In this document: positions 14,064 to 25,527 of the stretch, piece after piece
Numbering within the stretch: position 1 is the stretch's first letter
Layout: the number at the start of each line of letters is the position of its first letter
DNA from: Actinomycetota bacterium
GTDB lineage: Bacteria > Actinomycetota > Acidimicrobiia > Acidimicrobiales > JAMDDE01
DNA: 64,000 nucleotides
Direction of reading: 5' to 3'
Assembly: GCA_023489235.1 (NCBI GenBank)
Contig: JAMDDE010000001.1
Location: 14,072-78,071 of the forward strand
Made by a program: the position numbers and the translations under genes
The notes under the pieces: generated by a model
Told to the model about the DNA's origin: nothing
Database searches by the model: none
The model's input: the letters and a program-made list of their open reading frames with translations, nothing else

Positions 14064-14358
14064 GACGACTTCCCTCTATTCGACCTTAACTGAGGAACTC
14101 CCCTCACGAAGCTTCAGCCTTGTCAACTATCCTTCCAAGTATTTATTAATACCCTCTCAATCTAAGAGGATGTTTAATGTTTCCCAAGAATGCCTTAGAA
14201 ATATTGGACTACAACACCCTGCCAGTTGCACAAGGCAGTATTCCCTCTTTTGAAAAGTTTAGCGTTCCTAGCTATCCTCAGAACTTCGGTTGGTTAATAT
14301 ACCTGCAGGGCCAGGATGTTCGTATGCTGTCTGTTCAGGCTGTAAGTTAAAGTTTGTA

Positions 14359-15645
14359 ATGAGTTACCGGATCGACATAGAGCTTACTAGCGCGCGCGAT
14401 GATGGCATGTGGACATGGCGAGCGGCTGGGGCACGCCAACCTAAGGGTCTTCTTGACGCGCGTCTCTTATACGAGGGTGCTGGGGTAGGAGATGTCGTCA
14501 AGGCAGAGGTGGAGTCCGGCTTGGACGGTATTGAGGTGATAACCGTACTGCCACCGAAACCCAAACGCGACGAACCCGAGAAAATAATCTTGCTCAGCCC
14601 GAAGCGAGATGGGGTATCGCGCTCCAAATCTCGAGATACCTCTTACAGGGAGGAGGGTGGAACTTCAAGCAAGGTTCTCGAACACTCCAAACCGGAAGCA
14701 ACCTCCCCACCCCGTAGAGGCGACTCCAAGGGTCCTCGCAAGGATCGCCTGGCAGCAAGGGGAAAGTCACGCCCGAAAGTTCATGCAGAGGAATCTACAA
14801 CGACGGCTCCCACTGACGAGGTTGCCGGATCAGAGGATACTCAGAGTGTGCAGTCAACCAGTACAGCAACTCGCCGTCAGCCGCGACGGGTTGTTCCTGG
14901 TCGTCGCCACCGTAAAGAACTTCTGAACAAATTACCGGTTGAACAACGACCAATAGCTGAGCAGTTGCTAAGAGGTGGAATACCAGCAGTCAGACAAGCT
15001 ATTGAGCAACAGAACGAAGCACTACGCAAAGAAGGTAGACCGGAGATCTCTCCAGAGCCTTTGCTGGCCATGGCAGAAACCCTTTGGCCCCAGGTCAACT
15101 CTGCTACCTGGCTTGATCGAGCTGAAGCAGTGCTGCGAGATCCTTCATCAGTTGGCATGAGAGATCTGCGAGCTATAGTAGCTAGCGCGGGAACCGTCAT
15201 CCTGAACGAAACAGGGAGAAAGCTCGCCTCAGAGCTTCGCTCCATGCTGGAGGAGAGAGTTTCCCAACGTAGGCAGAGGTGGCTCGAGGATATCTCCCAT
15301 GATCTAGAGGAAGGGGCAGTGCTACGCGCCCTGAAACGTTCTTCCAGACCTCCTGATGGAGGAGCTCGTTTCCCAGCAGAGCTGGCCTTGAGATTGGCAG
15401 AGGCAGCCGGTCAGGCAATGAATGAAACTACTCCTGCTCCAGTTTGGCGCGAGCTTCTCGAGGCTGTCTTGACCTCACCTGTCCGGCGAACCGTCAAACC
15501 GGTCGGACTACCCGTAGATGCGGATCAAGATCTCAAAGTAGCTGCTCGCGGAGCCTCTGGCCAGATTCCGGCCCTTGCTTCTTTGTTAGGGATTGCCATG
15601 CCTCCCCCACCTCATCCTCCCAAGATATCCAGAACCTCGAAATAA
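14359..15645 (+). CDS. Conserved hypothetical protein (small N-terminal domain, basic disordered centre, helical C-terminal domain)
   Basis: Long ORF with window-typical composition. I prefer the ATG at 14359 (MSYRIDIELTS...) to the track start at 14290. I recognise no family. Confidence 0.55.
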   Translation: MSYRIDIELTSARDDGMWTWRAAGARQPKGLLDARLLYEGAGVGDVVKAEVESGLDGIEVITVLPPKPKRDEPEKIILLSPKRDGVSRSKSRDTSYREEGGTSSKVLEHSKPEATSPPRRGDSKGPRKDRLAARGKSRPKVHAEESTTTAPTDEVAGSEDTQSVQSTSTATRRQPRRVVPGRRHRKELLNKLPVEQRPIAEQLLRGGIPAVRQAIEQQNEALRKEGRPEISPEPLLAMAETLWPQVNSATWLDRAEAVLRDPSSVGMRDLRAIVASAGTVILNETGRKLASELRSMLEERVSQRRQRWLEDISHDLEEGAVLRALKRSSRPPDGGARFPAELALRLAEAAGQAMNETTPAPVWRELLEAVLTSPVRRTVKPVGLPVDADQDLKVAARGASGQIPALASLLGIAMPPPPHPPKISRTSK

Positions 15646-15674: not shown

Positions 15675-16109
15675 TCAAGATAGGCCGTCGTACAAGCGTA
15701 CAGATTCCTCGTGCTTGAGTACGGTATCGTTGAGAAAGTCCATCAACCCATCGGTCATGTCTGGATACGGAAGTGCATTCAACTCAACCCACTTCAGATC
15801 TGAAGCATCATCAGCTGCAATGGCCTGTTCAGTAATGGGCGCATCCACATTGAAATCAAATATTGCAAAGTTGTGCCCCTCTCCTCTGCGCTCGACAAAG
15901 CCCACCAGGGAGCCGCACCGAACATTCAAGCCGGTCTCTTCGGCTATCTCACGCTCCAACGCCCTTTGCAAGCTCTCTCCTGGTTTGACCTTTCCACCCG
16001 GTAGGGACCACCTGCCCTTTTGAGGCTCATGTCCTCTCTGAACAAGAAGAATGTGCCCTTGTCGTATTACGACTCCCCCAACCGCTATCTCGAAGCAATC
16101 AATGCTCAT
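15675..16109 (-). CDS. NUDIX hydrolase
   Basis: Nudix box GGKVKPGESLQRALEREIAEETGL. Confidence 0.85.
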   Translation of the reverse strand: MSIDCFEIAVGGVVIRQGHILLVQRGHEPQKGRWSLPGGKVKPGESLQRALEREIAEETGLNVRCGSLVGFVERRGEGHNFAIFDFNVDAPITEQAIAADDASDLKWVELNALPYPDMTDGLMDFLNDTVLKHEESVRLYDGLS

Positions 16110-16704
16110 CTAGCAACTGGCTGGCCTTGTTCAGGATCGTACGTCTTGCTCGATGAGTCATCTCGTACTCTTTGACCGTCCTGAGCTCCTCCATGGACAA
16201 TCCCTCCAAGCGTTGCACTACCTGCGAAGCAGAGAGCGCATCATAACCTGGAATAGCTAGATCCTTCTCCTCAACGCCTCCTTCGCTTACGTCCACTTTG
16301 TACCTGTTGCTGGCCTCACCTTCTTTATCGACTGACTTGACCTCTGTCGTAGGGTTATCGCTAACCTTGTGTTGGTCCACAGGAGTCGATGTGGAAGCAT
16401 CGTCATGATGCTGGTCGGGCTGACGTTGCTCAGCGCGTTGGTTCGGATATTTGAAGCCCAGATAGCGATCTAATCCAGCAGAAAGTACCTGCTTGATGTG
16501 TTTGTCTACTCGCTGGATCCCATAGTTGGCAGCCAGTTCACCTACTGTCCTGGCTGTGGCTAGCTGTGCTTCGATACGAGTGCGACCCTTGGATGCAAGC
16601 TTAGGCACCTCTTCGGAGGTAGCAATAGCTAGCCCAATAGGAGCATATACGAGTACATCTAGTACTCTTTCCACAGTTGAACGTTCATTTGAAGCGCTAG
16701 TCAA
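16099..16704 (-). CDS. Conserved hypothetical protein
   Basis: 201-aa ORF overlapping the Nudix start by 11 nt. The C-terminal IPGYDALSASQVVQRLEGLSMEELRTVKEYE...RRTIL segment resembles a motif seen in actinobacterial proteins of unknown function. Confidence 0.55.
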   Translation of the reverse strand: MTSASNERSTVERVLDVLVYAPIGLAIATSEEVPKLASKGRTRIEAQLATARTVGELAANYGIQRVDKHIKQVLSAGLDRYLGFKYPNQRAEQRQPDQHHDDASTSTPVDQHKVSDNPTTEVKSVDKEGEASNRYKVDVSEGGVEEKDLAIPGYDALSASQVVQRLEGLSMEELRTVKEYEMTHRARRTILNKASQLLDEH

Positions 16705-16777: not shown

Positions 16778-17293
16778 TCAAACGCAGTCGCGACACAATC
16801 CTCGCTCCGGGTCGGCCAACTGACTCATCCTCTTGACCAAGAAACAAGACTGGCAGACGAACTCACCTGGTTGCTTCGGCAACACTTTCCTGATTCCTTC
16901 TCCCCTATCCTCGTCTAGCTCGACGTCCTCTTCGTCATCTATGAGCTCTTCATCCTCATCAATCAGTCTTTCCTTCAATATGACGTCCAGACTTGCCTCT
17001 ACGTCATCCTCGTCGAGCTCGTCGTCCTCATCCTCTTCTGGCTCTTCTTCACTGAGTGAACGCAGGCCTGTTGGAGTGACCACCTCCTCGATCTCTGTGT
17101 CGTCGACGATGTCTTCGTCGGTCAAGTCTTCCAAGTCATCGTCCATGTCGACGATGTCTTCGTCGGTCAAGTCTTCCAAGTCATCGTCCATGTCGACGAT
17201 GTCTTCGTCGGTCAAGTCTTCCAAGTCATCGTCCAACTCAGATGGTTTAGATCCCTTGTTCGACTTGTCTTTGCCATTAGTTCGTCTTGCCAT
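16778..17293 (-). CDS. DUF4193-family protein with an expanded acidic repeat N-terminus
   Basis: The C-terminal VLPKQPGEFVCQSCFLVKRMSQLA...CRDC matches the remembered DUF4193 signature (PKQxDEFxCxSCFLVxxxSQLA...CRDC). The N-terminus is extremely acidic. Confidence 0.75.
   Translation of the reverse strand: MARRTNGKDKSNKGSKPSELDDDLEDLTDEDIVDMDDDLEDLTDEDIVDMDDDLEDLTDEDIVDDTEIEEVVTPTGLRSLSEEEPEEDEDDELDEDDVEASLDVILKERLIDEDEELIDDEEDVELDEDRGEGIRKVLPKQPGEFVCQSCFLVKRMSQLADPERGLCRDCV
17102..17235. repeat. Perfect 45-bp tandem repeat, about 3 copies, inside the DUF4193 gene
   Basis: Unit gtcgacgatgtcttcgtcggtcaagtcttccaagtcatcgtccat starts at 17102, 17147 and 17192. It encodes (D)DLEDLTDEDIVDMD three times. 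Confidence 0.95.
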
Positions 17294-17562: not shown

Positions 17563-18204
17563 ATGGACAGCACCCGTCACCTCACCGACGCGGCTAGAAG
17601 CGGAGCGTCGTTGAAACGCGCCCTGATAGTACCATTGGCAATAGTCATCGTCCTCCTCATTGCCTTTGTCGGTATGGCCATTACGACATCACCAGTCAAA
17701 TCAGTTGGGTTACCCCAGCGGAAAGTACTTGCTGGGTTGCCCACTACTCCTATTGTCAACTATTTGAAGACTCTGTCCAAAGACGGTGAACCTCCTCTGC
17801 CAAATGACGTAGCTCATGCTCTTTTGGTGCCGGAAGGGTCTCATCTCCTTCGCGCAACGAGCATTGGAGCAGGGGTTACCCAGTACGATGTCAAAGAGAT
17901 CCTATATGTCCCCTATCCGTACTACAAAGTATCTCAGTTCTTTCAAGACATTATCTCCGATTATCATTGGTCGAGATTAGAAAACCGAGTATCCGATGCC
18001 ACTGGTGCACTACAGCTCCTTGCGCAACGGCCCAGCAGTGACGGATATTACTGGGAAGTACATATTACAGTAGTATCGACAACATCCTCTGCTAACCTCG
18101 TCCCACTCTCTGAGCTCCCCAGTTATGTTCTACAAAATACTCGGAAAGGAGAGCATGCTAGTGAAGTTGGCTTGCACCTGTTGGAGGTAACTGTAGAGTC
18201 CTGA
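17563..18204 (+). CDS. Membrane-anchored hypothetical protein
   Basis: 213-aa ORF with one N-terminal TM helix (ALIVPLAIVIVLLIAFVGMAI). I recognise no family. Confidence 0.5.
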   Translation: MDSTRHLTDAARSGASLKRALIVPLAIVIVLLIAFVGMAITTSPVKSVGLPQRKVLAGLPTTPIVNYLKTLSKDGEPPLPNDVAHALLVPEGSHLLRATSIGAGVTQYDVKEILYVPYPYYKVSQFFQDIISDYHWSRLENRVSDATGALQLLAQRPSSDGYYWEVHITVVSTTSSANLVPLSELPSYVLQNTRKGEHASEVGLHLLEVTVES

Positions 18205-18274: not shown

Positions 18275-19894
18275 TCATACTTGTTGTGCTTGCTGACTAA
18301 CTGTCTCAGCTCTCAGCTCTGCATCCAGGCGTTCCAGATCGTAGTCTGTGTAGTCTACGAAGTACATGGCTTCAGCCACCAACCTGTGCCCAGCTTCTTC
18401 ACCAATCAAGCGGTGCATCTCTTGCACGATTCTACGGTATGCCGGATGCCCTTGAGGCTGACTGCGCAGCTCTATGACATGCATAGCTTCTCTGGCATTC
18501 ATCTCCAACACGTAACGAATGTTATAAGCAAGTGCTACAGCATATGCCGCTTGCTCTGGGAAGTCATTGAAGAGCGAAGTATAAAGCTTCCTAGAGCGCT
18601 CCAATGACTCAACATACTGATCCGCTAACCCGGCCTCTACGACACCACTTGGTACTTCATATCCCAGATCGGTGGTGAGCGGTTGCCACTCGATGGTCAT
18701 GAGTCGATGACGTTGCAAATCTCTGAAGGATCCATAGTCGGAGACCACTTCGAATCTGTAGGAGGATGCCTCGAAGGCGCGTCCTGGCTTGTGTCGACGA
18801 TTCCGTCTATCCCCTATGTACTTTCTGAATACCGCTTTTCTTTGTTCGTAGCTCATAGCAGCTACTACCCTTGACAACTCTTCTTCGGAGCACTTGGCAT
18901 AAGGGAAGAGCATGGCGGCCAAGATTTTTTCTTCTCCCTTGGGATCGAAGCTCAACAAACGCACATAAGGTTCGCTTGCAGACGCCTCCCCCTCTCCTGC
19001 CAGCAGTTCCTCGGCCAATCCCTCCATGGCTAGGTGGTTGTCGGATAAGTACTTTATCCATGCCTCTCCCCTATTGGGTTGATCCACTCGCGAAAGAAAG
19101 GCAGGGATAACTTTTCGCAACTCAGTGAGGAGCATACTGGCATATGCCTGGACTTCAGGCAGAGGATGACTGCGCATCCGCATCACGAGCATCTCGAATG
19201 ATTGACCGTCTCCGTAAATTCCTACATTGGAAAGAGTAGCTGCGGGCAAGATCCCTCTCAACAGATCTAGAGCCTTGGCGTTGATTGCTCGTCTGTGGGC
19301 AAGCACGGACAGATTGCCCGAAGGGGGATAGCGCTCAGTGAGATAGCGACGCATCTTGGGCAAGAGATCGGCATATGTATCGAACATTCGATCTAACTCG
19401 CCCACATACCTAGCACCGAGAGGCGACTCTAGGATCATTGGATCACGCCAGTAACGGTATAACCCGTTCTCCAGTCTCGTATCATAGTTTATGTACCTGG
19501 TTGACTGCTCCAGGTAGGACATGAGCCTTCCTCGCTCCAATACTTTGGTAAGCAAGTTAGACGCTTGTTCGCAAGCAACGTGCACTCCTCCCAGTTGAGC
19601 TATGGAGTCGTCACCGTATTCAACGAAAACACGATCGTACAGTTGCTTCGCCCGTTGCCAGGAACTCTCGGCGAATTGATTCGCAACCTCTTCCTTCGGG
19701 AGGTCTTCGACGAACTCATCCAGGAACAACCTCCTCAAGCTCTTGGGGGAACGCGAATACCTAGCGAACAGAGCGCCCTTGACTACCTCAGGTAGGTTGA
19801 CCAGTGCAAATACTGGCTTGTCCGTATTGGTGAAGTAACGGCTCAACAACTGCCGTTCCTCGTGACTGAACTGTTCGGTGTAGTAAGGATACAT
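18275..19894 (-). CDS. ThyX-like protein with two fused ThyX-type domains (FAD-dependent thymidylate synthase family)
   Basis: Residues 121-134 read RGRLMSYLEQSTRY, which has the exact spacing of the ThyX signature RHRxxSxxxxSxRY. Residues 395-400 read RHRLMT in a second ThyX-like half. At 539 aa the protein is about twice the size of a normal ThyX. Confidence 0.7.
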   Translation of the reverse strand: MYPYYTEQFSHEERQLLSRYFTNTDKPVFALVNLPEVVKGALFARYSRSPKSLRRLFLDEFVEDLPKEEVANQFAESSWQRAKQLYDRVFVEYGDDSIAQLGGVHVACEQASNLLTKVLERGRLMSYLEQSTRYINYDTRLENGLYRYWRDPMILESPLGARYVGELDRMFDTYADLLPKMRRYLTERYPPSGNLSVLAHRRAINAKALDLLRGILPAATLSNVGIYGDGQSFEMLVMRMRSHPLPEVQAYASMLLTELRKVIPAFLSRVDQPNRGEAWIKYLSDNHLAMEGLAEELLAGEGEASASEPYVRLLSFDPKGEEKILAAMLFPYAKCSEEELSRVVAAMSYEQRKAVFRKYIGDRRNRRHKPGRAFEASSYRFEVVSDYGSFRDLQRHRLMTIEWQPLTTDLGYEVPSGVVEAGLADQYVESLERSRKLYTSLFNDFPEQAAYAVALAYNIRYVLEMNAREAMHVIELRSQPQGHPAYRRIVQEMHRLIGEEAGHRLVAEAMYFVDYTDYDLERLDAELRAETVSQQAQQV

Positions 19895-19950: not shown

Positions 19951-22056
19951 CTATTTGAGGACAGAATTGATGAAATTGACCGGCTGAAACTGCCCGTCCA
20001 TTGTCTCCAGGTCAGCATCCACAACATCGGAATAGGAGGCTACCACTCCTCTGTCCATTGCAGCAGCGGCCTCAGCAGCACTTTTGCAAAGTAGTTCAGT
20101 CGGAGCAACATCGGCGATCTGACGAAGTAAATCTACCGTTTGCTTTACGTAGCGTACGAAGTCTCCAGGAGCGCTTTCGATGGCAAACAAAGCCTTTTTG
20201 AGCGGCCTACCCTTTGCCCAGGATAAGGCAGCAGTCATGAGACCCGCCTGAGGAAGGCGAGCTTGATCCAAGCCCAGCTCCCTTTCCTTGAAGATGATCT
20301 TGCTTGCTATATCGACGAGAAGTTCGAAACGGTCGGTGAGTATCCTGCTAGGGATAGATGGTTTACTTTGACCTCGATGACCTCGTGGTTCATAACAAAA
20401 TGCAGAGACCAACGCCCCCAGCTCTTCAGGCCTCAAATCGTCGAACACGCCTTGATGCATAGCCTCGGCCACCACGAGGCCCATTTCATGATAGATCCTG
20501 GCTAGGCGATCTCCTTTCTCGCTCAGCGACCAACCACTTTCCATGGTCACATACCCCAACGACTCCAGAAGAGTTATTGCTGCAGACATGTGCGAGGAAA
20601 GGGCATCCCTGGATATTTCAAGAACCCCTGCATTGGCTTGCCATTGAGCAAAGGATCTCTCAAGGATTGCAGCTGCTTCTTCAGGGGTATAGCGCTTTAC
20701 CATATTGGCAGCTGTGTTATATGTGGGACGGAATGACGAGAGCACATCTGGTGGGGGGGAAGCAGCCAATGAGGTGATGCGACGGAAGGAAACATAAGGA
20801 TTCCAGAGAACCACAGCATTGCCTATGGCATCTTTCCCACGCCTGCCAGCTCGACCGACCAACTGAGCATACTCTCCTGCGCTCAAAGGTGTGTGATTCT
20901 TCCCATCGTACTTGCTCAGCTTTTCTATGACCACGGTGCGAGCCGGCATGTCAATTCCCAAAGCTAAAGTCTCCGTCGCAAAGGTAACTTTTATAAGTCC
21001 CTCATTGAAGCAGGTCTCCACTGCCTCACGAAAAGCCCTTACCATACCTGCATGGTGAGAGGCAACTCCAGCTGATAGTGCAGTGATGAACTCTCCATAA
21101 CCAAGAGCAGAGAGATCATCATCGCTCAGTGATTCCACCTTGGACTCGACTATCTCTTCGATGCGAGCACGTTCCAGGTCATTGGTGAGCCGGATTCCTT
21201 CTTCCAAACAGATGCGCACCGCCCGATCGCATCCTGACCTGCTGAAGATGAATACTATAGCAGGTAGCATAGCGTTCGAAGCGAGAAAGTCCAGTACTTC
21301 CATCTTTTTCGGCACAGTAAGCCTTCTTGCTCCTCGTCTGGCAGCAGTGGAATCCAGATAGAACCCTTCTGGATTAGGCTTCCCATTCACCAAGGTAGGA
21401 GTAAGGATCATTTTCCCAGTTCGTCGTTCTCTACTCAAACAATAGTGTTGCAACTGCACAGGTCGATTGGTTTCAGTTATGACTGCAGCACTTCCACGTA
21501 CGCTCTTGATCCAAGCGGCAAGATCTTGAGCATTGGAAATAGTTGCGGATAGACAAATGAGTTGCAAGGATGGAGGAGTCAGGACTATCACTTCCTCCCA
21601 CACCGATCCCCTCTCCCGATCCTGCAAGAAATGCACCTCGTCGAGGATCACGCACCCAGACTTCGGAAGGTCTTCCTCGGATTCGTAGATCATGTTCCTC
21701 AATACTTCTGTGGTCATAACGATGATTCGGGCATCCGGGTTGATCGAGCGATCGCCAGTCAACAGCCCAACTTGTTCAACTCCATAGGTCTGACAGAGCT
21801 GAAGATATTGTTGATTGGAGAGGGCCTTCAAAGGTGTGGTGTAGAATGCATGTCCATTGGCACTGATCGCTCTTGCCACGGCATATTCGGCAATCAGCGT
21901 CTTGCCAGATCCTGTGGGTGCAGAAACTACTACGCATCCGCCACTGTCAACAGCGTCAAAAGATTCTAGCTGAAAAGGATCGGGCACCAACCCTCTAGCA
22001 GCAATGAACTGTTCCCTCAGAGTATTTTCTTCTGCTATCGTCGTATCCATCCACAC
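19951..22056 (-). CDS. helY: Ski2-like DEVH-box RNA helicase (HelY-like)
   Basis: APTGSGKT Walker A, DEVH box and helicase C motifs. It sits adjacent to tatC, as in mycobacterial helY-tatC synteny. At 701 aa it is shorter than the remembered HelY (about 900 aa). Confidence 0.85.
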   Translation of the reverse strand: MWMDTTIAEENTLREQFIAARGLVPDPFQLESFDAVDSGGCVVVSAPTGSGKTLIAEYAVARAISANGHAFYTTPLKALSNQQYLQLCQTYGVEQVGLLTGDRSINPDARIIVMTTEVLRNMIYESEEDLPKSGCVILDEVHFLQDRERGSVWEEVIVLTPPSLQLICLSATISNAQDLAAWIKSVRGSAAVITETNRPVQLQHYCLSRERRTGKMILTPTLVNGKPNPEGFYLDSTAARRGARRLTVPKKMEVLDFLASNAMLPAIVFIFSRSGCDRAVRICLEEGIRLTNDLERARIEEIVESKVESLSDDDLSALGYGEFITALSAGVASHHAGMVRAFREAVETCFNEGLIKVTFATETLALGIDMPARTVVIEKLSKYDGKNHTPLSAGEYAQLVGRAGRRGKDAIGNAVVLWNPYVSFRRITSLAASPPPDVLSSFRPTYNTAANMVKRYTPEEAAAILERSFAQWQANAGVLEISRDALSSHMSAAITLLESLGYVTMESGWSLSEKGDRLARIYHEMGLVVAEAMHQGVFDDLRPEELGALVSAFCYEPRGHRGQSKPSIPSRILTDRFELLVDIASKIIFKERELGLDQARLPQAGLMTAALSWAKGRPLKKALFAIESAPGDFVRYVKQTVDLLRQIADVAPTELLCKSAAEAAAAMDRGVVASYSDVVDADLETMDGQFQPVNFINSVLK

Positions 22057-22112: not shown

Positions 22113-22877
22113 TTACCGTCTTCTCAATATTCTACCAGCTATAATCGAAAGCTCATAGAACACGTACATGGGTACGGCCATGGCAATCATAGAGAACGGG
22201 TCTGAGCTTGGAGTTATCACAGCTGCAACTATGGCTATTGCTAGTATCGCCCACCTTCGCCAAGCCGATAATTTGGCTGGTGTAAGGATTCCTGCTAGCT
22301 CCAAAGAGATGAGCACAACAGGAAATTCAAAAGTCAGCCCGAAGGCTACGATCATTAATACCACTAAATTCAAGTACTTGGTAGGGCTGTAGATCTCGGC
22401 CAAGGTAGGCCCACCGATGGAGCGCAACCAGGAAAGAGCGTGGGTGAGAACCAACATAGCGATTAATCCGCCGAAGGAGAAAAGAAGTATCGAGGAGATG
22501 ACGAAGGGAACTGCATAGCGTTTTTCATTGGGGTTCAACCCTGGCGTGATGAACCGCCACAACTCCCACAGTATCACTGGAGAGGCAAAGAACACTCCCC
22601 CGTACAAGGAAAGCTTAACCCTCAAAGTCAGGCCGTCCAACGGACCTGTAACCCAAAGCTTGCATGATTGGTGCGCCGCCCTTGCCACCTCGCAATAGGG
22701 GTGCTCCAGCAAGGAAAGAAGCTGATTGTAGATCATAAAGGCTACTACACCAGCGATGGCCAGAGCAACGATCGACACGATGAGTCTCCTACGTAACTCG
22801 GCCAGGTGTTCGACCAGGGTCATCTCGTCTGGGGAAGGTCTCTGTCTTCCTTGACGGTGGAGAACGGACAGTGCCAT
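22113..22877 (-). CDS. tatC: Twin-arginine translocase subunit TatC
   Basis: 254 aa with six TM helices, an N-terminal MTLVEHLAELRRRL motif, and a position next to tatA/B. Confidence 0.92.
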   Translation of the reverse strand: MALSVLHRQGRQRPSPDEMTLVEHLAELRRRLIVSIVALAIAGVVAFMIYNQLLSLLEHPYCEVARAAHQSCKLWVTGPLDGLTLRVKLSLYGGVFFASPVILWELWRFITPGLNPNEKRYAVPFVISSILLFSFGGLIAMLVLTHALSWLRSIGGPTLAEIYSPTKYLNLVVLMIVAFGLTFEFPVVLISLELAGILTPAKLSAWRRWAILAIAIVAAVITPSSDPFSMIAMAVPMYVFYELSIIAGRILRRR

Positions 22878-22926
22878 GGTTCAGGAATTCATTTGGAGTT
22901 GCAGTCGAAACCTTCTGTTCATGTGC

Positions 22927-23619
22927 CTAGTTCATGCTCGGATCACCGTCGGATATTAACGGCAGATCTGAGATTGTAGAGTATCCCGGCACGCGTAGAG
23001 GAAGACTTGCTTGATGATCATACGATCTCTCATTGTTGTCATTGTGGTTACCATTGTGTCTCTCGTTGTTACGTTCACTAGGCATCCGTGGCTCGTCGTG
23101 GACAGGAAGTCTCTCACTGTTCCCGCTACGTCTCTCGTCGTTGCTCTGGCCGCTGCCGTTACTACCTCTATCGTCCAGCTCGCCCACCTCTGCACCTATC
23201 CCATTCTCTGTGTCGCTGGACAAGGAGTGGGCAGTGACCATGGAGCCCATGCTGCCATGATCCATGACAGAGGCTTGGATCATTCTCTCTTCGCCACCTG
23301 ATGAACCATTGCTCTCTTTTGCATCTGCAGAACTCGGGCTTGATCCTTGATCCCCTGCTTCTTCACTGCTTACAACTTGACTGAGCTTGGGAATGGTAAG
23401 GTCGTTCAGAAACGCCAAGGGCGATTTCACCATTGCCGGATCAACTGGCAGGTCTGGTATGGCGTTTCGTACCTCGGATTCAATTCGTTCACGAAAGCGA
23501 CGTATATCACCCCATGCAGCACCTATGTGTCGTGCAACTTTGGGCAGCTTCTCCGGTCCTAGAACCAGAAGCGCTACAACGAGGATGATGAGCAGCTTTT
23601 CCGGCCCTATGTCGAACAT
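22927..23619 (-). CDS. TatA/TatB-family translocase component with a long disordered C-terminal tail
   Basis: The N-terminus MFDIGPEKLLIILVVALLVLGPEKLPKVARHIG is the canonical TatA/B TM helix plus amphipathic helix. About 170 further residues are low-complexity (S/G/N/D/E/R/H rich). Confidence 0.8.
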   Translation of the reverse strand: MFDIGPEKLLIILVVALLVLGPEKLPKVARHIGAAWGDIRRFRERIESEVRNAIPDLPVDPAMVKSPLAFLNDLTIPKLSQVVSSEEAGDQGSSPSSADAKESNGSSGGEERMIQASVMDHGSMGSMVTAHSLSSDTENGIGAEVGELDDRGSNGSGQSNDERRSGNSERLPVHDEPRMPSERNNERHNGNHNDNNERSYDHQASLPLRVPGYSTISDLPLISDGDPSMN

Positions 23620-23631
23620 GAATCTACTGTA

Positions 23632-24132
23632 TCACCGAGCAGTCAAAGTGGCTATGAGCACCATCGCTATCAACATCAGAGTGATCAGAGCCATGGTATA
23701 TCTACTACGACTCTTGGCACGGAAGGAGTTCTCCTTCCAAGTACTGGCAGGCGGATAAGGGCTGAACGGGAAATCGACATCATCTCTATACATGTCCATG
23801 GTTTGTGCCTCCGCTATGCTAGCCTCGGACTGCAAAGGTTCGAAGTATGGGGCATCGGGTTCCATCTCGAGGAAGGGGGTGCCTGATCCAAATGGATCTC
23901 GAGAAAGGTCAGCATAAACAGCGTCGACAGCATCTGCCAGAAGAATTTCAGAAGCTTGACGAGCTTGATCGGCATGCACGTAGATGTCTATCACTCCTCC
24001 GAGAGGATAGGTATCCCCTATCGCTCCGACGAGTTCTGTGACTATACCCTCTGCTCCAAGTCGAGCTGCAATGACTCGAGCATGGAACAACCCGCTCACC
24101 GTGGTGAGATGAACCATTGAACGAAAGGCCAT
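23632..24132 (-). CDS. Hypothetical protein: DUF2007-like N-terminal domain plus a C-terminal TM anchor
   Basis: The N-terminal ~65 aa (VHLTTVSGLFHARVIAARLGAEGIVTEL...IYVHADQARQASEILL) resembles the small DUF2007 fold. The C-terminal segment ALITLMLIAMVLIATL is hydrophobic. Confidence 0.5.
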   Translation of the reverse strand: MAFRSMVHLTTVSGLFHARVIAARLGAEGIVTELVGAIGDTYPLGGVIDIYVHADQARQASEILLADAVDAVYADLSRDPFGSGTPFLEMEPDAPYFEPLQSEASIAEAQTMDMYRDDVDFPFSPYPPASTWKENSFRAKSRSRYTMALITLMLIAMVLIATLTAR

Positions 24133-24165
24133 ACTTGAACGCTAGCGTTTCAGTTGGGCTGATGT

Positions 24166-25527
24166 GTGATGAAAAAAAGAATATTTGGAATCGAGAACGA
24201 ATACGGGGTCACTTGTACCCTGCACGGACAGAGACGACTCAGCCCTGACGAGGTAGCTCGATACCTGTTCAGGAGAGTGGTCAGTTGGGGACGTTCCAGC
24301 AACGTCTTCTTGGAGAATGGGGCAAGGCTGTATTTGGATGTAGGTAGTCATCCCGAGTACGCAACTCCCGAATGTGATTCGATAGTAGACCTCGTGGCTC
24401 ACGACAAAGCAGGTGAGCGTATCCTTGAAGAACTGGTCAGTTCTGCTGAAAGTCGTCTCGGTGAAGAAGGTATTAGAGGAGTGGTGTACCTCTTCAAGAA
24501 CAATACTGATTCAGCGGGTAACTCCTATGGATGTCACGAGAACTACCTAACGGACCGACGGGATGACTTCAGCCACTTTGCCGAGGTTCTCATACCCTTC
24601 CTCGTGACTCGTCAGATATATGCTGGTGCAGGCAAGATCCTCCAAACTGCGCGAGGAGCCATGTACTGCATCAGCCAACGGGCGGAGCACATATGGGAGG
24701 GTGTTTCCTCGGCAACCACAAGGAGCAGGCCCATAATAAATACCAGGGACGAGCCTCATGCTGATGCAGAACGATTCCGTCGGCTGCACGTGATCGTCGG
24801 GGACTCCAATATGAGTGAGTACGCTTCTTTTCTGAAAGTAGGTGCAACCAGCATCATCTTGCGTATGCTGGAAGAACCTTCAGTAGTGCTGAGAGATCTG
24901 ACATTGGAAAATCCCATTCGTGCCATCCGGGAGATAAGTCACGATGTAACCTGTAGAAAGCTGATCCGCTTGGCCAATGGTCGTGAACTGAGCGCTCTAG
25001 ATATTCAATCCGAGTACCTTACCAGAGCTCTACGGTACCGCGAACGTGTGGGTCTCAATGCTGAGGAGGAAAAAGCTTTAGGCATGTGGGAACACTGCCT
25101 CAAAGGCTTGGAAGCAGACCCATTAAGTCTCGATCACCAGTGCGATTGGGTAATAAAGTACAAGTTGATCGAGGCCTACCAGAGAAGGCATGGATTGAGC
25201 CTCAGTGATCCTCGGGTTGCACTTCTCGATCTCCAATACCATGATGTCAAGCGAGAACGAAGCCTTTACTATAAACTTCAATCTGCCCGTTTGGTCGAGA
25301 GGGTAATCGATGACGATGCCATAGAAGAAGCCATCCAAAGGCCGCCTCAAACTACCCGTGCCAAGCTACGCGGCGAGTTCATTGCCAAAGCGAAGGAGCG
25401 TAAGCGAGACTATACCGTAGATTGGGTGCATCTTAAACTCAACGATCAAGCTCAACGGACAATCTTGCTCAAGGATCCGTTCAAATCGCATGATGAACGA
25501 GTAGAGCGACTCATAGCTAGCCTATAG
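24166..25527 (+). CDS. pafA: Pup--protein ligase PafA
   Basis: The N-terminus [15 protein letters not shown]...[49 protein letters not shown] is near-identical in pattern to remembered PafA. Its 453 aa is the PafA size class. Confidence 0.93.

Follow-up and report, generated by a model that had tools for sequence, protein, structure and literature searches.

The flavin-dependent thymidylate synthase ThyX, an antibacterial target, has a textbook active site that is shared by three subunits. In the enzyme of Mycobacterium tuberculosis, the RHR motif of subunit A contacts the phosphates, ribityl chain and isoalloxazine ring of flavin adenine dinucleotide (FAD), and R199 of the same subunit, equivalent to R174 of Thermotoga maritima ThyX, contacts deoxyuridine monophosphate (dUMP). 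For this FAD, subunit B provides S71 as well as R190, the equivalent of T. maritima R165, with FAD-A and FAD-B placed reciprocally and facing each other; subunit C contributes Q103, S105, R107 and Y108 of the serine loop, together with R87, and dUMP-C stacks on FAD-A (PMC6514825). In T. maritima numbering, dUMP is hydrogen-bonded by R78, R80, S88 and R90 (PMC3498832). Here, we describe a gene for a double-length ThyX-like protein (tandem ThyX), found in a 64,000-nucleotide stretch of an Acidimicrobiales genome (assembly GCA_023489235.1, contig JAMDDE010000001.1; the whole stretch is hereafter called the window). We propose, at a probability of roughly 0.7, that this gene encodes a flavin-dependent thymidylate synthase, converting dUMP to deoxythymidine monophosphate (dTMP), in a fused and asymmetric form in which the two halves of the chain would divide the active-site residues between them.

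Two ThyX-fold halves in one chain

We identified two stretches of similarity to the Pfam family Thy1 (PF02511) in the protein as a whole (E = 1.3e-35, 123.4 bits). When scanned alone, each half passed the gathering cut-off of 24.8 bits, the N-terminal half (N half) with 62.2 bits (E = 7.5e-17, residues 78-265) and the C-terminal half (C half) with 65.9 bits (E = 5.4e-18, residues 312-499, profile positions 1-187). The two Thy1 domains are far above chance. The preliminary description of this DNA had read the open reading frame (ORF) as two ThyX-like halves, and the profile searches bear this out, with two domains present rather than a single Thy1 domain joined to an unrelated remainder; the position and length that it gave for the ORF likewise agree with the ORF list.

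The predicted structure is in line with the profile matches. A single-chain AlphaFold2 model, built from 70 homologues, had a predicted local distance difference test score (pLDDT) of 94.0 and a predicted template modelling score (pTM) of 0.91, and in this model the order of strands and helices occurs twice, with the halves connected by a long helix. The best Foldseek matches in the PDB were all ThyX structures, that of T. maritima first; each covered about 225 columns, equivalent to one half, and the template modelling scores on the target were 0.72-0.77. In profile comparisons with hhalign, the C half matched T. maritima ThyX with a probability of 94.7% (E = 5.8e-8, 193 columns), the N half matched the same protein at E = 4.5e-4 (187 columns), and the two halves matched each other at E = 5.1e-5 (209 columns). 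By both profile and fold, the tandem protein is a member of the Thy1/ThyX superfamily.

Complementary sorting of the active-site residues

Because sequence searches matched no solved ThyX, we mapped individual residues by profile alignment, using hhalign against a T. maritima ThyX reference sequence that is 100% identical to PDB 1KQ4/1O26. The mapping used a diverse alignment of 70 sequences (A2); a low-diversity alignment (A1) aligned the N half poorly. Residue counts are given over 70 tandem homologues, extending down to 34% identity, and positions are in T. maritima numbering.

The N-half motif of the query reads RGRLMSYLEQSTRY, in which the His of RHR is replaced by G122, and E129, S131, R133 and Y134 of the serine loop are kept. 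The C half reads RDLQRHRLMTIEWQ, with an intact RHR at residues 395-397 (within RHRLMTIEWQ); its serine loop is gone through a deletion of five residues, and the positions of R90 and Y91 are occupied by E402 and W403. Further along the C half, in the segment NAREAMHVIELRSQPQGH (the NAREAMHVIELR helix), N466 and R468 align to T. maritima N163 and R165, and R477 aligns to R174; in the N half, R213 aligns to R147. The preliminary description had reported the N-half motif with RHR turned into RGR, the C-half motif with RHR intact and both serines and the RY lost, and the later helix pattern in the C half, and the translation returns all of these. The RGR wording is true of the query, but does not extend to the family, in which the N half reads [R/D/W]-[G/S/A]-R and only the last Arg is kept (68/70).

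Across the homologues, the RHR triplet is conserved in the C half, where R78, H79 and R80 are matched by Arg in 69, His in 67 and Arg in 67 sequences. The corresponding N-half positions hold Arg, Asp or Trp (23, 23 and 18 sequences), then Gly, Ser or Ala (32, 11 and 8) and never His, and finally Arg in 68. The serine loop is sorted in the opposite sense: the equivalents of E86, S88, R90 and Y91 are Glu in 66, Ser in 69, Arg in 68 and Tyr in 66 of the N halves, and in the C half the five residues N85-G89 are deleted, R90 is replaced by Glu and Y91 by Trp. The R147 equivalent, R213, is found in all 70 N halves, and its C-half counterpart is Gln in 41, Ala in 8 and Arg in 6. The three remaining positions favour the C half, with N466 kept in 63/70, R468 in 69/70 and R477 in 68/70. 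At these same positions the N half has mostly Ser (29) or Asn (28) for N163, Gln (47) or Arg (20) for R165, and Arg (33) or Lys (25) for R174. R213 is invariant among the tandem homologues, as are its neighbours L216 and P217, and the His of the C-half NAREAMHVIELRSQPQGH segment is kept in 68/70. The complementary degeneration of the two halves, as put forward in the preliminary description, is conserved in the 70 tandem homologues, and the protein is no peculiarity of one genome.

The complete RHRxxSxxxxSxR(Y) motif is found in neither domain alone, and is complete only when both halves are combined. The same is true of the equivalents of R165, R174 and R147, which are present as a composite (R468 and R477 in the C half, R213 in the N half) and not all within either half alone. 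The composite site contains all the equivalents of R78, R80, S88, R90, R174 and Y91, and across the 70 homologues those of E86, S88, R90, Y91, R78, R174 and R147 are kept at 94-100%.

The two halves are conserved to the same degree, with a mean top-residue frequency of 0.53 in one and 0.52 in the other, and the linker (0.32) is the least conserved part of the protein; neither half is a decaying relic. The N half has conserved motifs of its own, YGDDS and RxSR, and the residues conserved solely in this half are R45, S47, R48, R54, E60, F61 and the YGDDS motif at 93-97.

A predicted dimer with two complete sites

Set beside the published three-subunit map, the C half carries the residues of subunits A and B, and the N half those of subunit C. 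In a tetramer with 222 symmetry, the four sites are formed by (A,B,C), (B,A,D), (C,D,A) and (D,C,B). Under this symmetry, two complete and two dead sites are predicted: with C halves as A and B, and N halves as C and D, the first two sites would be complete and the last two degenerate in all three of their contributions. A dimer of the tandem protein thus probably has two working and two dead sites, and this coherent sorting, as read from the alignments, is the strongest argument for a functional sub-functionalisation of the halves. A covalent pseudo-dimer with sub-functionalised halves and half the usual number of active sites had been suggested in the preliminary description, and is favoured by the ThyX folds, the equal conservation of the halves and the complementary residues in all three subunit roles. 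We infer that the N half would be the dUMP-binding half that donates the serine loop and the C half the FAD-binding half and, with them, the geometry of the oligomer, its FAD stoichiometry, its activity and a role as the main thymidylate source of the cell.

We propose that tandem duplication of an ancestral thyX was followed by fusion of the copies and that, with three subunits contributing to each ThyX active site, this fusion would have let one class of sites decay. The C half would have retained the residues that bind FAD and uracil-O4 (RHR 395-397, N466/R468 and R477), and the N half the dUMP-clamping loop (E129, S131, R133 and Y134) plus R213 and K117. Two polypeptides would form a pseudo-222 "tetramer of domains", in which the true two-fold would relate the paired C halves and two FAD would be bound reciprocally, each by the RHR of one C half and R468 of its partner. 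One flavin would be covered by the serine loop and dUMP of each N half. Each site would use both polypeptides, and each dimer would have two complete sites, two dead sites and one FAD per chain.

A more speculative extension, which we regard as doubtful, is that the decayed N-N side, with the residues conserved solely in the N half, has taken on a new use as a pocket for docking or regulation, which might receive reduced nicotinamide adenine dinucleotide (phosphate) (NAD(P)H) or another reductant, the enzyme being obligately asymmetric. We know of no domain of ThyX that is dedicated to NAD(P)H or another reductant. If true, the half-of-sites design would explain the replacement of the canonical tetramer in entire lineages, namely Acidimicrobiia, Dormibacteraeota, some Candidate Phyla Radiation bacteria and some phages. 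Even without such a pocket, the division of labour between two live and two dead sites would be a first natural example for ThyX.

Pathway fusions and phage relatives

We identified homologues in which the tandem ThyX is fused to enzymes of the same pathway. In three representative clusters (P0205, P0202 and P0210; 764-781 aa, 40-41% identity), a thymidylate kinase domain (PF02223) precedes the tandem ThyX, and a fourth (P0216; 703 aa, 36% identity) carries a deoxyuridine triphosphatase (dUTPase, PF00692) N-terminal to the tandem ThyX. The fusion homologues share the asymmetric motifs, and P0210, a Candidatus Dormibacteraeota protein with the thymidylate kinase fusion, was found on independent contigs. 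These fusions support the conversion of dUMP to dTMP, because dUTPase makes the substrate of this reaction and thymidylate kinase consumes its product. Other tandem homologues have extra segments of about 120-220 aa without a Pfam match, at the N-terminus in P0178, P0217 and P0149, and at the C-terminus in P0137.

Two phage lineages encode a tandem ThyX, in both cases annotated as "thymidylate synthase": gp020 of the Microcystis phage Ma-LMM01 and gp50 of the Tunturiibacter jumbo phage Tunturi_5. The phage proteins align full-length in two domains (by Foldseek against the viral structure library BFVD, and by tblastn over 88% of the query), and show the asymmetry of the bacterial protein: their N half has the ERSTRY loop as well as R213, and their C half has RHR and ELR. 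They differ in their low identity to the query (24-27%), and in being encoded by a phage auxiliary gene as opposed to a cellular housekeeping gene. In Tunturi_5, the tandem thyX gene lies directly after that for deoxycytidine monophosphate (dCMP) deaminase and two genes from that for dUTPase, in the row dUTPase - helicase - dCMP deaminase - thyX. Taken together, the composite contacts, the pathway fusions and the phage neighbourhood point to a function in the conversion of dUMP to dTMP.

Distribution of the tandem architecture

A word-indexed search listed 8000 matches, the best 120 of which were nearly all 530-570 aa in length and 61-85% identical to the query; these 120 were from Acidimicrobiales metagenome-assembled genomes and were named "FAD-dependent thymidylate synthase" or "ThyX". 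Full-length homologues are of about 520-570 aa. When representatives at 50% identity were searched exhaustively with HMMER, 1009 clusters were found at E <= 1e-30, with full-length coverage to about 36% identity. In a scan of one genome per species, tandem thyX was present in at least 597 species genomes; this wide occurrence, with the tatC-helY-thyX order conserved, also supports a function in making dTMP from dUMP. The best 80 of these (at least 597) loci were nearly all from Acidimicrobiia or unclassified actinobacteria, three having Bifidobacteriaceae names, and distant tandem members carried the names of Dormibacteria, Woesebacteria (Candidate Phyla Radiation) and Ferrimicrobium. The architecture is thus less unusual than the preliminary description had implied, as thousands of full-length homologues are already named ThyX. 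We rejected a frameshift merger of two adjacent genes, given the thousands of full-length homologues with the same architecture to 34% identity.

Gene neighbourhood

The coordinates of the tandem thyX gene, its parts and the related features are given in Table 1.

Table 1. Positions of the tandem ThyX gene and its parts in the window, of the adjoining helicase gene, and of the two phage relatives.
Feature	Position	Strand	Residues	Details
Tandem ThyX (Thy1-Thy1), complete ORF	18275..19894	(-)	539 aa	ATG start; ORF list, Pfam, AlphaFold2
N-terminal ThyX-fold half	19085..19837	(-)	~20-270	Pfam Thy1, hhalign, AlphaFold2
N-half ThyX motif RGRLMSYLEQSTRY	19493..19534	(-)	121-134	Translation
N-half DLLRGILP, including R213	19244..19267	(-)	210-217	Translation; R213 aligned to T. 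maritima R147 by hhalign
Inter-domain linker, mostly one long helix	18968..19084	(-)	271-309	AlphaFold2 helix 276-297
C-terminal ThyX-fold half	18350..18967	(-)	310-515	Pfam Thy1, hhalign
C-half RDLQRHRLMTIEWQ with intact RHR	18683..18724	(-)	391-404	Translation; RHR at 395-397
C-half NAREAMHVIELRSQPQGH (NAREAMHVIELR helix)	18446..18499	(-)	466-483	Translation
helY-type helicase gene	19951..22056	(-)		Directly upstream, 56-nt gap; Pfam DEAD and DSHCT
Tunturi_5 gp50	L081 3977-5533			Double-length ThyX
Ma-LMM01 gp020	L082 2942-4417			Double-length ThyX

The preliminary description had placed the gene beside helY and away from genes of nucleotide metabolism, and we confirm this position: helY adjoins the tandem thyX gene, and 65 of 80 related loci likewise have helY directly upstream in the same orientation. 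No match to dut, glyA or tmk was found in the window or in the related loci. The helY and tandem thyX genes are probably co-transcribed. No promoter-like or terminator-like site was found in the gap between them, and a scan around the gene was at background level. The related loci have the conserved order tatA-tatC-helY-thyX-(DUF4193)-...-NUDIX and, because this gene order is conserved, the adjacency to helY is a class-wide housekeeping arrangement and not a hint of a special role. In one homologue, P0196 (644 aa), a single ORF joins the DSHCT domain that ends HelY to a Thy1 domain; it may be a genuine read-through of helY into thyX, or an artefact of a frameshift or of the assembly, and in both cases is consistent with the adjacency of helY and thyX.

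Upstream, at 22113-25527, the window has the typical actinobacterial arrangement pafA (Pup ligase) - tatA/B - tatC - helY, in which the TatA/B-like protein ends in a long tail of low complexity, about 180 aa in length. On the other side of the tandem thyX gene, the DUF4193 gene (ORF 16778-17293, (-)) contains a perfect tandem repeat at 17102-17235 (45 bp x 3.0, 100% matches), which encodes the acidic peptide DDLEDLTDEDIVDMD three times. Between these two genes lies an ORF of 213 aa (17563-18204, (+)), with no Pfam match and no tblastn match in the 80 related loci, which looks like a lineage-specific insertion into the conserved gene order. Two further ORFs that match no Pfam family are found near the tandem thyX gene in many of the 80 related loci: one of 451 aa with a TTG start (14290-15645, (+); 51/80), and one of 201 aa (16099-16704, (-); 57/80) that overlaps the NUDIX gene (15675-16109) by 11 nt. 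Elsewhere in the window, the segment 50001-54000, with five (-) ORFs of 289-502 aa, has a GC content of 0.44-0.48 versus about 0.51-0.53 in the remainder, and could have been horizontally acquired.

Alternative explanations

Several points weigh against the interpretation of this gene as a fused and asymmetric flavin-dependent thymidylate synthase. The protein scored 52 bits against the NCBIfam equivalog model for thyX (TIGR02170), below its cut-off of 87.9, and neither the single sequence nor a 22-sequence family profile matched a solved ThyX in sequence searches of the PDB; given the latter, the tandem family must be considered divergent. Some canonical positions differ in the live set: in the hhalign alignment, P370 stands at H53 of T. 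maritima, R372 at T55 and D392 at Q75. Among the phage proteins, the R165 equivalent is Ala in Tunturi_5 and Lys in Ma-LMM01. A search for thyA, folA and single-domain thyX that covered the window and 0.92 Mb of related loci returned none, which is weak evidence on whether the genome has another such gene. The location of R147 and R74 in the serine-loop subunit is presumed from the T. maritima structure and from the sorting itself. The pairing of the C halves across the two-fold is predicted, and activity, FAD content and oligomeric state are likewise predicted. The tandem protein is best described as an architectural variant of ThyX, as it has no complete motif in a single domain and falls below the TIGR02170 cut-off.

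This divergence might reflect a changed substrate, the protein being a flavoenzyme of the ThyX fold with another nucleotide as its substrate or with another product, for example through methylation or hydroxymethylation of uridine monophosphate (UMP), dCMP or cytidine monophosphate (CMP). ThyX-like enzymes with other substrates occur in nucleoside-antibiotic pathways, and such an enzyme would fit the low equivalog score, the lack of a sequence-level match to solved ThyX, the differences at the H53, T55 and Q75 positions and the absence of nucleotide-metabolism genes beside the bacterial gene. We nonetheless consider it unlikely, as the contacts to uracil and phosphate (E86, S88, R90, Y91, R78, R174 and R147) are kept in the composite site, the thymidylate kinase and dUTPase fusions and the phage dCMP deaminase bracket exactly the step from dUMP to dTMP, and the gene is a class-wide single gene of housekeeping type, not part of a biosynthetic cluster. 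Of the two possibilities left by the preliminary description, a thymidylate synthase or an enzyme with a different substrate, the former is thus favoured by the composite contacts, the pathway fusions and the phage neighbours.

A genuine thymidylate synthase might alternatively have all four sites working, with substitute residues in the N-type sites and no division of labour between the halves. R123 of the N half, the R80 equivalent (68/70), could serve in this manner, as could the basic residue found at the R174 position of the N half in 58/70 and the Arg at its R165 position in 20/70, and the N half is conserved like the C half, with its own YGDDS and RxSR motifs. However, a flavin site on the N half needs the serine loop of the C half, which is deleted in the family, with R90 and Y91 replaced by Glu and Trp; moreover, the N half never has His in its RHR, and all three contributions to the N-type site are degenerate together, which makes four working sites improbable in our view. 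We give least credence, and very little of it, to a catalytically dead derivative of ThyX whose role, linked to HelY, would be one of binding or regulation through the sensing of nucleotides or flavin. The lack of a complete ThyX motif in either half would be expected of such a protein, and the conserved adjacency to helY, with one homologue that reads through from the HelY C-terminal domain, would agree with the link; but different phyla and phages keep the composite catalytic set at 94-100%, the pathway fusions suggest a catalytic protein, and phages carry the gene inside nucleotide-metabolism modules.

Comparison with known ThyX enzymes

Compared with canonical ThyX (T. maritima TM0449, PDB 1O26; M. 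tuberculosis, PDB 2AF6/3GWC), the tandem protein has the same fold in each half and the same catalytic residues once the halves are combined, with the site presumably at the junction of three ThyX-fold units (PMC6514825). Canonical ThyX is a homotetramer of subunits of about 220-260 aa, with four identical sites and the full motif in each subunit, whereas the tandem protein has two domains in one chain and is predicted to be a dimer with two sites. We found no published description of a tandem, double or two-Thy1 ThyX in the literature searched, from which key ThyX papers were absent, and nothing in this literature that links thyX with Acidimicrobiia; there is no solved structure of a double-length ThyX. 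The tandem protein is thus an undescribed-looking architectural variant of a known enzyme, already annotated as ThyX, and not a new function.

If the halves divide the labour between FAD and dUMP, the family would provide independent evolutionary confirmation of the three-subunit site map, and a scaffold with two sites that would be simpler to use in mechanistic studies and in asymmetric mutagenesis. The same division would explain why these proteins fail on the thyX equivalog model despite being named ThyX by annotation pipelines. This bears on metabolic reconstruction, in which the strict model would count thyX as missing from genomes of Acidimicrobiia, Dormibacteraeota and some Candidate Phyla Radiation bacteria, and the practical outcome is a refined annotation of a large, already named family.

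Among engineered enzymes, the nearest counterpart is the ThyX heterotetramers of Leduc et al., in which mixed subunits with different inactivating mutations reportedly regain some activity, restored because ThyX sites are shared between subunits. The tandem protein resembles a natural, fixed version of these heterotetramers. They differ in that the heterotetramers are a laboratory construct of separate chains, and the complementation in the tandem protein is within one polypeptide and conserved across phyla. Among natural enzymes, the ThyX of Chlamydia trachomatis (CT632), reported as biochemically characterised by Griffin et al. in 2005, is of about 529 aa, twice the usual size, and may belong to the tandem class. 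CT632 is an active flavin-dependent thymidylate synthase (PMC3498832), and the classical chlamydial ThyX is too divergent to align with other ThyX (PMC6171736). Should the C. trachomatis enzyme be of the tandem class, the function of this class would already be established, and solely the reading of two live and two dead sites would be new.

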